Shown in pieces: positions 45,834-52,505 of a stretch of DNA of 64,000 nt. Each line of letters begins with the position of its first letter. Positions within the stretch are counted from its first letter, which is position 1. Under the pieces are notes generated by a model. That model was not told the origin of the DNA. It was given only the letters and a program-made list of their open reading frames with translations, and ran no database searches. The stretch lies in contig OZ253555.1 of assembly GCA_965262725.1 (NCBI GenBank), forward strand, positions 1,344,001-1,408,000, written 5' to 3'. The stretch comes from Dehalococcoidia bacterium. GTDB taxonomy: Bacteria; Chloroflexota; Dehalococcoidia; UBA2979. Position numbers and translations under genes: made by a program.

Positions 45834-46587
45834 GCCTCCGCGCGGCCGCCGTCCGGAGCCGCCCGCCGGTGGACCGGCTGGCGCCCCGATTCGACGGGAT
45901 CGTATCTTCGCACAGGGTGCCCCGTCCCACGCGCACCGGGGGCGAATCGCGCCCGGTGCGCGTGGGACGCTAGTGTCCCGATTCAGGGATGCGCTCTAGA
46001 TATCCGGCGAGGTTGGTGTGTCCCGAAGTCGAAGGGCGGGTGACGTGATGACGTAACCGGTCTGGAGACATGCTCGTCGTTGCCAGCCGGTGCGAGTCCG
46101 GCACGGGTAACTGTCAGGAGGCCCGTTAGCAGGTCGGCGGCGCGGACGGGAAACGGTCCACGTCGAAGCCCGACGTCAAGAGCCCTATCAGGGGGAGCAA
46201 CCAAGCGGTCCGCAGCATCAAGCGAAGCCTGCCGCGTCGTTAACGGATAGTGGAGGAGCCGAGCCCGGCAATTCAGGGCGAAGGCCATGGACGAGGTGAA
46301 GATCCTGAATGCGCGTTGCGCTGCAGCCTCAAGGAACCTCCCGGCGTAAGGGGCGTGGAACGTTTGGAAGGTAGCGACGGGAACGGGAGAAGCCCTCCCC
46401 GGCCCGGCACCCTGCGAGATGGTGTCGGAGCGAGGTGCCCTATAACCGGTCAAAGCCGGGAAGTGGGCAGCTAGCCGGAAGGGTGACGGAGGGGGTCGTA
46501 GTACCGCTTGAGCCGGACGGACAACACAACCGCCGGTGATGGGAAGGACCCCTGCTTTGCTCACGCGTGGGGAGTAGGGATGAATCG

Positions 46588-47131
46588 GTGAGTGCCCAAG
46601 CGGCTAACTCCATCCAAGACAAGGTCCGAACACTACAACGCACGCTTTACCGGGCGGCCAAGGCCGACCCCAATAGACGCTTTCATGCGCTCTACGACAA
46701 GGTTTATCGCAGAGACATTCTGGAGCGCGCGTGGGAGCAGGTGCGTCGCAATCGCGGCGCAGCCGGTATCGACGGCGTCACGCTCGCCGAGGTCGAGCGC
46801 TACGGCGTGGAGCGCCTGCTGGATGAACTGGCCACGGAACTGAAGGAGGGAAGATACCGGGTGCAGCCGAGCCGCCGGGTCTGGATACCCAAGCCCGGTC
46901 GGTCGGAAGAGCGCCCGCTCTCGATTCCTTCGGTCCGCGACCGCATCGTGCAGGCGTCGCTGAAGCTCGTGACGGAGCCGGTCTTCGAGGCCGACTTCCT
47001 GCCATGCAGCTTCGGCTTCCGCCCGAAGCGTTCGGCCCATGACGCCCTGCAGGTCCTCATTGACGAGGCGTGGCGGGGCAGGCGGTGGGTAGTGGAGACG
47101 GACATCGCCTCGTGTTTCGAGTCGATACCGC
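46588..47131 (+). CDS. ltrA: Group II intron reverse transcriptase/maturase, 5' part
   Basis: RFHALYDKV, GAAGIDG, IPKPG..RPLSIPSVRDRIVQ, SFGFRP; start codon uncertain. Confidence 0.9.
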
Positions 47132-47732
47132 GTGCGTCCGGAAGTCGAAGGGGTGGTGACGTGATGACGTGACCGGTCCGGAGACATGCTCGTTGCTGCC
47201 AGCCGGTGAGAGTCCGGCACGGGTAACTGTCAGGAGGCCCGTTAGCAGGTCGGCGGCGTGGACGGGAAACGGTCTGCGTCGAAGCCCGACGTCAAGAGCC
47301 CTATGAGGGGGAGCAAACGTGCGGTCCGCAGCATGACGCGAAGTCTGCCGCGCCGTGAGACTCGCCTGTCTATTGACAGGACCAAGGAGGAGCCGAGCCC
47401 GGGTGGTCAGGGCGAAGGCCATGGACGAGGTGAAGATCCTGGAATGCAGCCTCAAGAAACCTCCCGGCGTATGGGACGTGGAACGTACGGAAGGTAGCGA
47501 CGGGAACCGGAGAAGCCCTCCCCGGCCCGGCACCCTGTGAGAGGGCGTCGGAGCGAGGCGTCCTATAACCGGTCAGAGCCGGGAAGTGGACAGCCAGCCG
47601 GAAGGGTGGCGGAGGGGGTCGTAGTACCGCTGGAGCCGGACGGACAACATAACCGCCGGTGATGGGAAGGACCCCTACTTTGTCCGTGCATGTTGCTGGG
47701 GGTGTGGACTGGTGAGTGCCCCTCGGGGCTAG

Positions 47733-48940
47733 GGGTTCTCTGAACAGGTCGCCGCGTCGTTACTGGAGCACATGCACACTCCGATGACTATATGCGATCA
47801 TGGCACTCCTCCGGGAAAGGGGAGCGCTGCCATGCATCAGCCGACATTCGCGAGAGTCGAGTTCGAGCGGGATGGCTACAAGACGCGCCGCCAGAAGTTC
47901 CTCGAACGGCTGGATGGCCTCGTCCCGTGGCAGAGGTTCGAAGCAGCCATCGAGCCCCACTACCCGAAACCGGGCCGCGGGCGGAGGCCCTACCCGCTCT
48001 CCGTGATGCTGCGCATCCATACCGTGCAACTCTGCTACAACCTCAGCGACCCCGGCATGGAGGATCTGCTCCACGAGGCCGAGTCGGTGCGAGCCTTTTG
48101 CTTCCTCACGCTCTCCGAGCCCATCCCCGACGAGACGACGATCCTCAACTTCCGGCACCTGCTCGAGCGCCACTCCCTGGGTAGCAGGATCCTCCAACTC
48201 ATCAACGAGCACCTCACGAGCAAGGGATTGAAGCTGAGCGAGGGCAGCATCGTGGATGCGACCATCATCTCGGCGCCATCGTCGACGAAGAATCGCGGGC
48301 GGGCGCGGGACCCGGAGATGCATCAGACCAAGAAGGGGAAACAGTGGTTCTTCGGGATGAAGCTGCACATCGGCGCCGACAGGGATACTGGACTGGTCCA
48401 CAACTTCACGACCACGCCTGCGAACGTGTCGGACGTGTCTGAGACGCACCGCCTGCTGCACGGCGAGGAAGCCGAGGTCTACGGCGACGCCGGGTACCGG
48501 GGCGTGCAGAAGAGACCCGAGAACGCGGACTCCAGGGTCAAGGACTGGAACGTGGCGATGCGCCCGGGCCTCCGGCGTGCGCTCGACCCGGAGAGTCCTG
48601 AGGCCGTCGAGGAGAAGCGGAAGGCATCGGTGCGAGCGCTGGTGGAGCACCCGTTCTACAGCGTGAAGCGGCGCTTCGGCTACGCCAAGGTGCGGTACCG
48701 GGGTCTCTTCAAGAACCACGAGCGGTGTGCGGTCTTGCTGGGGTTCCACAACCTGCTCACCGCGAAGCCGCACCGTGCCTGACCGTGGGTGGAGTGCGCC
48801 CTCCCCGCCCCACACGGGGCGAGGAGGGGAGCCACAGGGGCCCGCGAGGGGGCGGATATGACCACTGTCATCGGGAATCCGCCTGAGAGCGCCTGACCGC
48901 GGCGAAACTGGGTCGCTAGACCCACCTGATCAGACTTGCC
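47733..48940 (+). mobile_element. IS5-family element, copy 1 (1208 bp)
   Basis: Imperfect TIRs GGGTTCTCTGAACAGGT / ACCTGATCAGACTTGCC; CTAG direct repeats at 47729 and 48941. Confidence 0.93.
47832..48782 (+). CDS. IS5 family transposase
   Basis: PDETTILNFRHLLE, IVDATII.APSSTKN, FGMKLHIG.D, YGDAGY, RALVEHPF. Confidence 0.95.
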   Translation: MHQPTFARVEFERDGYKTRRQKFLERLDGLVPWQRFEAAIEPHYPKPGRGRRPYPLSVMLRIHTVQLCYNLSDPGMEDLLHEAESVRAFCFLTLSEPIPDETTILNFRHLLERHSLGSRILQLINEHLTSKGLKLSEGSIVDATIISAPSSTKNRGRARDPEMHQTKKGKQWFFGMKLHIGADRDTGLVHNFTTTPANVSDVSETHRLLHGEEAEVYGDAGYRGVQKRPENADSRVKDWNVAMRPGLRRALDPESPEAVEEKRKASVRALVEHPFYSVKRRFGYAKVRYRGLFKNHERCAVLLGFHNLLTAKPHRA

Positions 48941-49205
48941 CTAGCAACCACTTGGTAGGGTTCGAGGCTCTCCGCACATGCTGTACCGGCTGGCCAAGGC
49001 ACGACCCACGTTGTGGGGAGCGCTGCATGCCATCTGGTGAAGGGCATCGGTGAGCCGGATGAGGGAGAACCTCACGTCCGGTTCGATGTGGCAGGGGCTG
49101 GAGACGGACGCTGCTATGGCCGTGGAGTTGGGCACCACCGGGAAACCGGCTTGGAACTGATGCGCCACCGCCTACGGCTCGCACCGCGCCAGCCCCTGAC
49201 CCTAC

Positions 49206-49999
49206 ACGACCGTCTGATGACGGCCGTCGAGGAACGGATATGCGACCGCAATCTCCTGAAGCTGGTACGGGCGATGCTGCGTGCCGGTGTGATGGAGTCG
49301 GGGGTCGTGCAGCACAGCGCGACGGGTACGCCGCAGGGCGGGGTGATGTCCCCGCTGCTGGCCAATGTCTACCTGCACCGGTTGGACCGGGACTGGGAGG
49401 CGAAGGGTGATGGCGTGCTGGTGCGCTATGCGGATGACCTCGTGGTGCTCTGCCGGAGCCGGGAGGAAGCGGAGCGGGCGTTGGCCCTGCTGCGTGACCT
49501 GCTGGGTGAGCTCGGACTGGAGCTCAAGGCGGAGAAGACGCGCATCGTGCACCTGCGGGAGGGAGGCGAGGGGCTGGAGTTCCTCGGCTTCGAGCATCGC
49601 TGGGTACGTGCGAAGCGCAACAAGAATATCCAGTTCCTCGCACGCTGGCCCTCACGGCGAGCGATGCAGCGGGCGCGGGACCGCATCCGTGAAATCACGG
49701 CGCGGTTGCGTCTGCTGCTGAGTCCCCGGCAGGTCGTGGAGGAAGTCAATCGCTACCTCCGCGGCTGGATGAGCTACTTCCGCTACGGCAACTCGGCGAG
49801 GGCGTTCGACGTCCTGCACTGGTTTGCCATGTGGAGACTCAAACTCTGGCTGGGGAAGCGGTTGCGTTGGCGGCGACGCCATCGCGGGCACCCGTTTCCC
49901 GTCGCCGACCGTCTGGGGCTCATCTCGCTAGCTGGACAGCGCGTCGTGGCACCACGGCCATATCGACCGTGGCGGGGCACCCCGCATGCCGCCCGGTGA
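49206..49999 (+). CDS. ltrA: Group II intron reverse transcriptase/maturase, 3' part (no En domain)
   Basis: GTPQGGVMSPLLAN.YL, RYADD, FLGF, LRGWMSYF. Confidence 0.92.
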
Positions 50000-50159
50000 A
50001 GGGCATCGGTGAGCCGGATGAGGGAAAACCTCACGTCCGGTTCGAGGCGGCAGGGGCTGGAGACGGACGATGCTACGGCTGTGGAGATGGGCGCCACCGG
50101 GAAACCGGCCTGGCAATATGCGCCACCGCCTACGGCTCGCACCGCGCCAGCCCCTGACC

Positions 50160-51212
50160 CTACTCAAGGATCTGGTCCGCGGACTTGTGCCAGATGAAGG
50201 GCCTCGGATTCTCGTTCCAGCTGGCGACCCACATCTCCACTGAGCGGATCAGATCAGGGACGCTATGGTGCGTGCCGCGCCGGAGCCACTTGCTGGTGAG
50301 CTCTGCAAACCAGCGCTCCACGAGGTTCATCCAGGAGCTGTAGGTCGGCGTGAAATGGAAGGTGAAGCGGGGATGGCGCTGGAGCCAGCGCTGGATGGCG
50401 GGCGTGCGGTGCGTGGAGACGTTGTCGAGCACGACATGCACCGCCAGCTCACGGGGAACGCTTTGGTCGATGAGGGCGAGGAACTGCTGGAACTCCCGAG
50501 CCCGGTGCCGGGGGGTCATCTCCGTGATCACGCATCCCGAGGCGACATCGAGCGCCGCGTAGAGGTTCGTCGTGCCGTGACGGATGTAGTCGTGCGTCTG
50601 GCGGGCGGGGACGCCGGGCATCATCGGCACCGTCGGCGCGGTGCGGTCGAGTGCCTGGATCTGGGTCTTCTCGTCCACGCACAGCACAACCGCCGCGTCG
50701 GGCGGGTTGAGATAGAGCCCGGCCACGTCGCGCACCTTGTCGATGAACTGCGGGTCGGGCGACAGCTTGAAGCTCTCCACGAGGCGCGGCTTCAGGCCGA
50801 AGGCGCGCCAGATCCTGGAGATCCCCGACTGCGACATCCCGAGCGCGGCTGCCATCGATCGGGTCGACCAGTGCGTCGCGTTGGGAGGCTGCTCCTCCAG
50901 CGTCGTGACGATCACCGCTTCCACCTGTGCATCGGCGATCGTGCGCGGCGCCCCGGGGCGCGGCTCATCCTGTAGCCCATCGAGCCGCCCCTGCGCAAAG
51001 CGCCGGCGCCACTTGCCGACGGTGACCGGATGGCAATCGAGCGCCGCGGCGATCGCTTTATTCGATGTCCCCTCGGCCGCTGCCAGGACGATGCGACAGC
51101 GCAGCGCCAGCGCCTGGGCCGATGTCGGCCGGCGCGCCCACCGCTCCAGCGTCTCACGCTCCTCGTCGCTCAGGACGATCGCGACCGTCGGCCGTCCGAT
51201 TCGGATGCTCAT
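50160..51212 (-). CDS. IS630 transposase, C-terminus truncated by the antisense intron
   Basis: HTH region, VDEK / LDN / NLVERWF DDE triad; native tail lies at 46015-45970. Confidence 0.93.
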   Translation of the reverse strand: MSIRIGRPTVAIVLSDEERETLERWARRPTSAQALALRCRIVLAAAEGTSNKAIAAALDCHPVTVGKWRRRFAQGRLDGLQDEPRPGAPRTIADAQVEAVIVTTLEEQPPNATHWSTRSMAAALGMSQSGISRIWRAFGLKPRLVESFKLSPDPQFIDKVRDVAGLYLNPPDAAVVLCVDEKTQIQALDRTAPTVPMMPGVPARQTHDYIRHGTTNLYAALDVASGCVITEMTPRHRAREFQQFLALIDQSVPRELAVHVVLDNVSTHRTPAIQRWLQRHPRFTFHFTPTYSSWMNLVERWFAELTSKWLRRGTHHSVPDLIRSVEMWVASWNENPRPFIWHKSADQILE

Positions 51213-51297
51213 GACACTCCAGAGTCTGCCCCATGGGGCAAAACCCCGCTGTGCCACCATACCCGTTATCTGTCGCTATTACGAATCAGGACACTAG

Positions 51298-52505
51298 GGG
51301 TTCTCTGAACAGGTCGCCGCGTCGTTACTGGAGCACATGCACACTCCGATGACTATATGCGATCATGGCACTCCTCCGGGAAAGGGGAGCGCTGCCATGC
51401 ATCAGCCGACATTCGCGAGAGTCGAGTTCGAGCGGGATGGCTACAAGACGCGCCGCCAGAAGTTCCTCGAACGGCTGGATGGCCTCGTCCCGTGGCAGAG
51501 GTTCGAAGCAGCCATCGAGCCCCACTACCCGAAACCGGGCCGCGGGCGGAGGCCCTACCCGCTCTCCGTGATGCTGCGCATCCATACCGTGCAACTCTGC
51601 TACAACCTCAGCGACCCCGGCATGGAGGATCTGCTCCACGAGGCCGAGTCGGTGCGAGCCTTTTGCTTCCTCACGCTCTCCGAGCCCATCCCCGACGAGA
51701 CGACGATCCTCAACTTCCGGCACCTGCTCGAGCGCCACTCCCTGGGTAGCAGGATCCTCCAACTCATCAACGAGCACCTCACGAGCAAGGGATTGAAGCT
51801 GAGCGAGGGCAGCATCGTGGATGCGACCATCATCTCGGCGCCATCGTCGACGAAGAATCGCGGGCGGGCGCGGGACCCGGAGATGCATCAGACCAAGAAG
51901 GGGAAACAGTGGTTCTTCGGGATGAAGCTGCACATCGGCGCCGACAGGGATACTGGACTGGTCCACAACTTCACGACCACGCCTGCGAACGTGTCGGACG
52001 TGTCTGAGACGCACCGCCTGCTGCACGGCGAGGAAGCCGAGGTCTACGGCGACGCCGGGTACCGGGGCGTGCAGAAGAGACCCGAGAACGCGGACTCCAG
52101 GGTCAAGGACTGGAACGTGGCGATGCGCCCGGGCCTCCGGCGTGCGCTCGACCCGGAGAGTCCTGAGGCCGTCGAGGAGAAGCGGAAGGCATCGGTGCGA
52201 GCGCTGGTGGAGCACCCGTTCTACAGCGTGAAGCGGCGCTTCGGCTACGCCAAGGTGCGGTACCGGGGTCTCTTCAAGAACCACGAGCGGTGTGCGGTCT
52301 TGCTGGGGTTCCACAACCTGCTCACCGCGAAGCCGCACCGTGCCTGACCGTGGGTGGAGTGCGCCCTCCCCGCCCCACACGGGGCGAGGAGGGGAGCCAC
52401 AGGGGCCCGCGAGGGGGCGGATATGACCACTGTCATCGGGAATCCGCCTGAGAGCGCCTGACCGCGGCGAAACTGGGTCGCTAGACCCACCTGATCAGAC
52501 TTGCC
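51298..52505 (+). mobile_element. IS5-family element, copy 2 (appears identical to copy 1)
   Basis: Same ends and 1208-bp length; CTAG direct repeats at 51294 and 52506. Confidence 0.93.
51397..52347 (+). CDS. IS5 family transposase
   Basis: Translation identical to 47832-48782. Confidence 0.95.
   Translation: MHQPTFARVEFERDGYKTRRQKFLERLDGLVPWQRFEAAIEPHYPKPGRGRRPYPLSVMLRIHTVQLCYNLSDPGMEDLLHEAESVRAFCFLTLSEPIPDETTILNFRHLLERHSLGSRILQLINEHLTSKGLKLSEGSIVDATIISAPSSTKNRGRARDPEMHQTKKGKQWFFGMKLHIGADRDTGLVHNFTTTPANVSDVSETHRLLHGEEAEVYGDAGYRGVQKRPENADSRVKDWNVAMRPGLRRALDPESPEAVEEKRKASVRALVEHPFYSVKRRFGYAKVRYRGLFKNHERCAVLLGFHNLLTAKPHRA

Follow-up and report, generated by a model that had tools for sequence, protein, structure and literature searches.

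A group II intron without an open reading frame, nested in the reverse transcriptase gene of a related intron in a Dehalococcoidia genome

We analysed a stretch of 64,000 nucleotides from a Dehalococcoidia bacterium (assembly GCA_965262725.1, contig OZ253555.1, positions 1,344,001 to 1,408,000 of the forward strand; hereafter the window), in which a group II intron lacking an open reading frame (ORF) lies within the reverse transcriptase (RT) gene of another group II intron. Such an arrangement had been proposed in an earlier, sequence-only reading, and the coordinates given there for the inner intron turned out to be exact: it runs on the plus strand from GTGCG at 47132 to CCCTAC at 49205, and the outer intron from GTGTG at 46016 to CCCTAC at 50163. 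The locus is a nest of four levels, in which an IS630-family element contains an RT-encoding group II intron (family A), which contains the ORF-less group II intron, which in turn contains an insertion sequence (IS) of the IS5 family (Table 1). The inner intron comprises 862 nt plus the 1208-bp IS5-family insertion and one extra CTAG, while the length of the outer one is 4148 nt in the window and 2936 nt where copies of the nested pair are clean. The outer intron is oriented antisense within the 3' end of the IS630-family transposase gene, 14 codons before the stop.

The RT ORF is cut between 47131 and 49206, i.e., between codons 188 and 189. When the inner intron is removed, ...TTC GAG TCG ATA CCG C is joined to AC GAC CGT CTG ATG (FESIP/HDRLM) and an ORF of 452 amino acids (aa) results, whose halves match adjoining parts of the group II RT/maturase model TIGR04416 of NCBIfam; in Pfam they match RVT_1 and GIIM only, and no endonuclease domain was matched among the Pfam and NCBIfam profiles. 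As read from the DNA, the locus is thus a twintron: the inner intron lies wholly within the outer one, and when it is cut out precisely the outer sequence is restored, with contiguous coverage of TIGR04416. The split falls inside the RT domain, upstream of YADD, and leaves the downstream half without the N-terminal RT motifs, so that synthesis of the RT would need splicing of the inner intron. A PDB sequence search with the RT matched group II RTs, the best being 7uim and 6ar1, which does not settle the intron class.

The RNA of the inner intron closely parallels that of the outer one, as the sequence-only reading had observed for domain I (DI), domain V (DV), and the long domain VI (DVI). Both match the Rfam model RF02003 (group II D1-D4) over its full length, the inner intron at 47200-47336 (102.8 bits, E 2e-22, model positions 1-138, gathering score 49) and the outer one at 46084-46220 (95.3 bits). 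By blastn, the 5' ends of the two share 86.7% identity (562 aligned columns, E 1e-171) and the 3' ends 91.7% (181 columns, E 1e-67). DVI is unusually long (~115 nt), and the DV/DVI regions of both introns are predicted to fold alike, with a bulged A at -7 in each; in the consensus DVI fold of four sequences the A at -7 is unpaired and family B (see below) shows two compensatory pairs. The ends of the inner intron, GUGCG (47132) and ...CUAC (49205), are identical in all of its 28 genomic copies, the consensus for group II introns being 5' GUGYG and 3' AY.

In domain IV (DIV) of the inner intron, the translation quoted earlier as a relic of the RT ORF, SAPRG(stop)QPLGRVRGSPHMLYRLAKA...WGALHAIW(stop), was reproduced. 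Its proposed colinearity with the outer ORF held for the start region, where the best local DNA alignment scored 37 (500 shuffles, 15.1 +/- 2.2, maximum 22), and not for the tail before 49025, whose alignment by itself scored 12 versus 14.7 +/- 2.5 for shuffles and was not significant. RT coding capacity was not matched anywhere within 47132-49205 in the ORF list or by tblastn, the sole ORF match there being the IS transposase. As far as its sequence tells, the inner intron is an ORF-less derivative that arose through ORF deletion, the relic retaining both ends of the parental ORF. The transposase of the IS5-family element in DIV matches the NCBIfam model NF033581 with 305 bits; a copy of this element, 100% identical, lies at 51298-52505 and abuts the IS630 end at a CTAG, and the genome holds at least 17 full-length copies with at least 99.3% identity. 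An open frame of 328 aa (49013-49999) opens with a GTG within the inner intron's 3' part and continues, in the same frame, through the C-terminal half of the RT (YADD and maturase); we judged it to be probably a chance open frame in DNA of 67% G+C.

Table 1. Features of the nested locus, in window coordinates
Feature	Position	Strand	Basis and remarks
Outer RT-encoding group II intron, family A	46016..50163	+	RF02003 and RF00029 matches; 12 genomic copies with the same ends; 13 empty sites; empty-site joint 46015>50164 (run X6)
Outer counterpart of EBS2, CGGAU	46244..46248	+	homologous place in the inner/outer alignment
Outer counterpart of EBS1, CAAUU	46269..46273	+	pairing with GGUUG
RT ORF, 5' part, codons 1-188	46567..47131	+	RVT_1 profile 1-83 of 205; TIGR04416 profile 2-137 of 353; alternative GTG start 46588
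Inner ORF-less group II intron	47132..49205	+	RF02003; 28 genomic copies, 24 exact over 862 nt
Putative EBS2 of inner intron, GACUCG	47359..47364	+	would pair with CGAGUC, -14 to -9 of the RT 5' exon; inner/outer alignment, flanks of the 28 copies, pairing counts
Putative EBS1 of inner intron, GUGGU	47403..47407	+	would pair with ACCGC at -5 to -1
DIV relic, 5' part: start-codon region of the lost RT ORF	47710..47732	+	GGTGAGTGCCC common to the outer intron; stops at the CTAG target
IS5-family insertion in inner DIV	47733..48940	+	transposase ORF 47772-48782; CTAG duplicated at 47729-32 / 48941-44
DIV relic, 3' part	48945..49042	+	resembles RT codons ~17-28 (TLYRAAKAD), then the last ORF codons; local alignment
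Inner domain V	49052..49084	+	RF00029, 37.5 bits (gathering score 40); DV-only model E 5.8e-4; consensus fold
Inner long domain VI	49090..49202	+	predicted bulged branch-point A at 49199 (-7); RNAalifold, RNAfold
RT ORF, 3' part, codons 189-452 and stop	49206..49999	+	RVT_1 profile 90-204 of 205; GIIM; TIGR04416 140-352 of 353; YADD and maturase (X) domain
Outer domains V and VI	50011..50163	+	predicted branch A at 50157; Rfam, fold
IS630-family transposase gene that harbours the outer intron	50160..51260	-	NF033545, 273 bits; last 14 codons severed by the intron

We then determined how often the two introns occur in the genome, a single contig of 3.67 Mb with 70.6% G+C. The 5' part of the inner intron (597 nt) was found 28 times, always 100% identical, and 24 of these copies were exact across the whole 862 nt. 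Fifteen copies occupy the same RT codon: each of the 12 introns of family A is interrupted there, and so is each of the 3 introns of a sister family, B, whose RT pieces share 72-89% protein identity with those of A; the motif TTCGAGTCGATACCGC was followed by the inner intron at 15/15 places (12 A, 3 B), with 0 empty sites. In a tblastn search with the joined RT, every match with a piece at least 70% identical was split at residues 188/189, and neither tblastn nor the motif search found an uninterrupted A- or B-family RT gene in the genome. Because every A and B RT gene is filled (0/15 uninterrupted), full-length RT would come only from transcripts with the inner intron spliced out, as the sequence-only reading had argued; the intact RT copies acting in trans that it had also envisaged have no A- or B-family candidate in this genome.

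The homing sites of the outer intron, on the other side, are 12/25 filled and 13/25 empty among the IS630 copies. Five of the 12 family A twintrons are clean 2936-nt copies with 0-1 differences and one lacks a single base; of the remainder, one carries tandem inner introns, one (that of the window) an IS5 in the inner intron, two an IS in domain I, and two IS insertions in the ORF. After removal of the inner intron, the 452-aa ORF is intact in 10/12 copies. These near-identical copies occupy IS630 variants with at least six different 3' flanks, and in some of them the types of the 5' and the 3' flank are mixed.

The alignment of the inner and outer introns is near-continuous save in two places, where CGGAU of the outer intron stands against GACUCG in a larger loop and CAAUU against GUGGU. 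The respective 5' exons are complementary to these motifs (...AUCCG...GGUUG for the outer, ...CGAGUC...ACCGC for the inner intron), and because of this complementarity we read them as putative exon-binding sequences, EBS2 and EBS1. UAACC (near 46428 and 47558) had been considered for EBS1 and was dropped, being the same in both introns despite their different targets. The predicted pairing of the EBSs of the inner intron with the intron-binding sequences (IBSs) of its exons was complete (11/11) at the RT site and averaged 9.5/11 at 12 ectopic sites, compared with 5.81 +/- 1.46 at random sites (n=200,000), a score that is partly circular in that the flanks scored also helped to find the motifs. 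The expectation that other copies would share the RT codon was borne out by 15 copies, every available RT site being filled, and failed for 12 of the 28, which lie at non-RT sites sharing IBS motifs. One A RT gene contains a tandem pair of identical inner introns (549500-551223, L022), which is consistent with re-invasion of the still-intact 5' exon at an occupied site. The inner intron is identical within A and within B, though the A and B ribozymes are only ~81% identical to each other.

The copies are also biased in orientation: 24/28 inner introns, and 11/12 of the ectopic set, are found on the replichore's G-rich strand, and two of the four exceptions lie within 16 kb of a skew turning point. 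The cumulative GC skew has its minimum at ~0.405 Mb and its maximum at ~2.52 Mb, and the orientation of the inner intron flips accordingly. According to the excerpted texts of PMC4424553 and PMC8919778, a strand bias is expected for endonuclease-less introns priming at replication forks, and the bias found here fits such fork-primed mobility.

Four ectopic copies (genome positions 1822597, 317969, 1853597, 3058071) lie in sense orientation in plausible host ORFs, whose proteins would need the inner intron to be spliced in trans; the clearest host is that at 1822597, with at least 600 codons and a G+C content at third codon positions (GC3) of 0.91. At 1018206, 537614, and 381562 the copies are antisense and the host ORFs simply broken; from the reading of short peptides we take these hosts to be a histidine-kinase-like ORF, a hydrolase-like ORF, and an IS630 transposase. 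Another ectopic copy (L021, 1524130-1524991) interrupts the RT gene of an intron of D1D4-6 type; the codon is a different one, and YGFSHGFRPGRS follows right after it. That RT family has a second copy, near 1875791-1878229, with ~1.3 kb inserted in the same region. A triple nest was also found (L020), where a family B intron contains the inner intron and this contains C', a 1923-nt RT-encoding intron (734423-736345; RF02005, RT ~40% identical) that interrupts the inner intron's domain V at the place corresponding to 49065/49066 of the window. In a relative (G008; L013, L015, L018), an RT gene ~40% identical lies at the same DV place in three A-like introns, which suggests that some intron lineage homes into DV of the family of A and the inner intron.

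Next to this genome, three of 41 related ones gave matches to the 5' part of the inner intron, all of them RT-encoding introns with 78-86% identity, and a scan with the C-terminal half of the RT over 185,579 species genomes yielded 6 loci. Where the locus extends over the split site, the RT ORF is continuous there, namely in the relatives L002/L014 (residues 2-452), L008/L013 (4-444), L016 (3-446), L017 (59-451), and L015 (23-375), and in L018 it spans the site as two overlapping pieces, 29-282 and 264-452. Several relatives have a near-perfect target, TTCGAGTCGATTCCGC followed by AC, the uninterrupted form of which reads TTCGAGTCGATTCCGC followed by ACGACC. For the region around the deletion junction, a search of 401 class genomes, in each of which 2 candidates were scored, found elsewhere only the shared last 50 nt. 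Neither an inner-type copy nor an RT split at this codon was found outside this genome among the 41 relatives, the 401 class genomes, and the 6 RT loci, and plasmids yielded no ORF-less form, only RT-encoding relatives with 68-77% identity from Streptomyces, Rhodococcus, and similar. Because the RT ORFs of relatives run on and the junction search found only the shared last 50 nt, the interrupted state of the RT gene is the derived one. In a tree of 8 ribozymes, the nearest neighbour of the inner intron is the outer A intron, with moderate support (84/89) and ~90% identity in aligned columns, which agrees with the earlier claim of an internal-deletion derivative of the same family; since the two differ by ~10-13%, the inner intron did not arise by deletion from the outer sequence in its current form.

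Four sequencing runs (X1, X2, X6, X8) were compared with the window, all as assembled contigs (Logan). Joints of the RT gene without the inner intron were present only in X8 (47130>49205 in 2 contigs, depth 20; 47129>49204 in 1 contig, depth 3.5); the molecule type of X8 is not on record, and the joints may be either uninterrupted DNA of another strain or spliced RNA. No RT joint was found in X1, X2, or X6, of which X1 and X2 cover small parts; a missing joint in an uncovered part does not speak against it. X1, a sponge metatranscriptome, contains a 263-nt contig identical to 47283-47545, a sign of presence only and not proof of transcription. The IS-free joint of the inner intron, 47728>48941, is present in X2, X6, and X8, and the resulting IS-free form of 862 nt equals the natural copy L005:1501-2362.

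We consider it probable that the inner intron is an active non-autonomous derivative which targets the RT gene of its helper and moves independently of that helper. A deletion derivative of the A lineage would have retained the whole ribozyme, the base of DIV, and the first ~28 and last ~8 ORF codons; with its changed exon-binding sequences it would recognise the codon block TTC GAG TCG ATA CCG C (FESIP-H) in the RT gene of its relatives, and it would spread by reverse splicing and reverse transcription with the RT given in trans, most likely by the endonuclease-less A/B protein, priming at replication forks. The inner intron lies in DIV, outside the core, so the core of the outer ribozyme is not disrupted and the outer intron probably still folds. 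New copies of the outer intron would either arrive with the inner one (composite mobility) or be refilled later, both routes having been raised, in the excerpted text of PMC2882425, for the twintrons of Thermosynechococcus elongatus. The idea of a satellite, put forward in the sequence-only reading, fits this picture in that there would be 28 satellites to 12 helpers and the differences between the two cluster at the putative EBS1 and EBS2. The brake on the mobility of both introns envisaged in the same place would have to be weak or recent, because both elements multiplied, to 12 and 28 near-identical copies. The DNA itself shows the anatomy, the census of copies, the rule for target sites, the strand bias, and the lack of any intact A/B RT gene; in vivo splicing, the identity of the helping RT, and a feedback on mobility are the parts that we infer.

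Several observations weigh against this proposal. None of the four runs gave RNA evidence of splicing, and no promoter is known for the outer intron, which is oriented antisense to the transposase gene around it. The RF00029 (domain V) match of the inner intron (49050-49205, 37.5 bits) lies below the gathering score of 40, which that of the outer intron (50009-50076) passes with 41.5 bits; the 34-nt DV hairpin of the inner intron, GAGCCGGAUGAGGGAGAACCUCACGUCCGGUUC, differs from the passing one by one loop base. The copy in the window, with the IS in its DIV, may be impaired, the 100% identity of copies could be inflated by gene conversion or assembly polishing, the pairing score is in part circular as described above, and the helper may be other than A/B, uninterrupted RT genes of further intron families being present in the genome.

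Some of these facts would suit inert debris: the copy in the window, and perhaps the family as a whole, would be decaying mobile elements, with an inner intron that killed the RT genes, after which nothing splices or moves, the identical copies being the product of a past burst or of gene conversion. This we regard as unlikely: besides the missing RNA evidence and the antisense position of the outer intron, it can draw on the IS5 in the inner intron of the window, on the further ISs in DI or the ORF of 4/12 A copies, and on only 12/25 outer sites being filled, but it is at odds with 24 inner copies exact over 862 nt, 5 twintrons with 0-1 differences over 2936 nt, 10/12 intact spliced ORFs, complete ribozyme motifs, and the tandem re-invasion and ectopic sites, which point to recent activity.

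About as improbable, in our estimate, is a different helper, with the continuous-ORF RTs of unrelated families splicing or mobilising the inner intron, or the intron splicing by itself, so that the A/B RT would be irrelevant and there would be no dependency loop. At 11 places, tblastn found genes for such RTs as one unbroken match each, with 37.7-40.3% identity, and self-splicing may be favoured at 70% G+C if the organism grows warm. The ribozymes of the one family C copy examined and of the C'-like and D copies, however, are of the type RF02005 (D1D4-6), whereas those of A, B, and the inner intron are RF02003; moreover, the inner intron retains the A-type base of DIV and the start-codon region, DIVa being the usual RT-binding site of group II introns. 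In T. elongatus, cross-mobilisation is reported in the excerpt of PMC2882425 among intron-encoded proteins 87% identical. That the twintrons merely hitch-hiked on IS630 transposition or homologous recombination, the inner intron having been acquired once beforehand, is very improbable, since, for all that every A copy lies within an IS630-family element and mixed 5'/3' flank types suggest recombination, identical twintrons occupy IS630 variants with at least six distinct 3' flanks, 13 perfect IS630 sites are empty, and the inner intron is also known from family B, as a tandem pair, and from 12 sites outside ISs.

From the independently moving derivative that we prefer, one may go a step further, to an obligate twintron, which we put forward tentatively as a possible but rather doubtful extension. 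The inner intron would be fixed in every RT gene of the helper lineage, at a conserved motif that the helper cannot easily change, and its splicing would gate the output of RT; if that splicing needs the RT, the ~40 introns would form a positive-feedback, possibly bistable ON/OFF circuit of retromobility.

The closest known counterparts are the TeI3-in-TeI4 twintrons of T. elongatus (Mohr, Ghanem & Lambowitz 2010, PMC2882425, as excerpted). There, as here, ORF-less introns derive from a related RT-encoding intron by ORF deletion, the inner copies are mutually identical, insertion into the ORF region of the helper's DIV is site-specific, some family members home into insertion sequences, and proliferation reached ~28 copies; the helper RT acts in trans in T. 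elongatus, which here is only proposed. According to the same excerpt, the insertion in T. elongatus separates the first ATG from the second, and the RT, which can begin at the latter, does not depend on splicing, whereas here the gene is split at codon 188/189, inside the RT domain, with no usable downstream start. T. elongatus also has two introns with continuous ORFs and its outer introns are diverged (PMC2882425, excerpt), while here the interruption affects 15/15 RT genes, and the outer copies, too, are near-identical. The ribozyme lineage differs as well, being Rfam D1D4-4 with Dehalococcoidia and actinobacterial relatives here and cyanobacterial in T. elongatus.

In the nests of Methanosarcina acetivorans, as far as the excerpts of PMC4424553 and PMC2882425 describe them, ORF-less and RT-encoding introns home into the ORFs of related introns, and several nest levels amount, as here, to a perpetual homing site with no housekeeping exons around; these nests are archaeal, have up to five levels, and turn over by recombination. 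Saturation of RT copies may or may not be common to them too. A bacterial group II twintron of Trichodesmium erythraeum, for which sequential splicing was followed by RT-PCR (Pfreundt & Hess 2015, PMC4649490, excerpt), differs in that the inner intron lies in domain I, both introns have ORFs, and a conserved host gene is interrupted. The kind of element is therefore already known from Thermosynechococcus and Methanosarcina, and what is new is its complete saturation of a mid-RT site with helper sites half-empty.

Non-autonomous riders of autonomous elements are familiar as miniature inverted-repeat transposable elements (MITEs), short interspersed nuclear elements (SINEs), and defective interfering genomes. 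By analogy, the inner intron would resemble these riders: derived by internal deletion, with its recognition parts retained, it would use the enzyme of its parent in trans, and it outnumbers that parent (28 vs 12); unlike them, it inserts into the parent's enzyme gene and could remove itself at the RNA level. Bacterial twintrons with an ORF-less rider are models for the origin of the dependence of group II introns on trans factors, a step along the proposed path toward spliceosomal introns, and they also model selfish elements that parasitise one another. With 28 rider copies, 15/15 helper RT genes interrupted, half of the helper sites empty, and uninterrupted helpers in relatives, the genome offers a natural experiment, which could show whether the rider limits its helper and how RT synthesis bootstraps without an intact gene. 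Were the gated circuit real, these would be natural bacterial introns reliant on a shared trans factor made only through splicing. There is also a warning for annotation, as all RT genes of this family would end up labelled as pseudogenes; the excerpt of PMC8919778 states, for its own pipeline, that a search for RT near domain V misses the outer intron of a twintron.

The genome carries two further elements that also struck intron copies, namely an IS of 2627 bp with two ORFs (14 copies genome-wide, 12 of them full-length) and one of 1418 bp (9 copies), for which an IS21-like and an IS256-like nature, respectively, can only be guessed from size and ORFs. Upstream of the outer intron in the window, just beyond the end of the IS630 element, lies a near-perfect palindrome of 47 nt (45923-45969, 93.6%).

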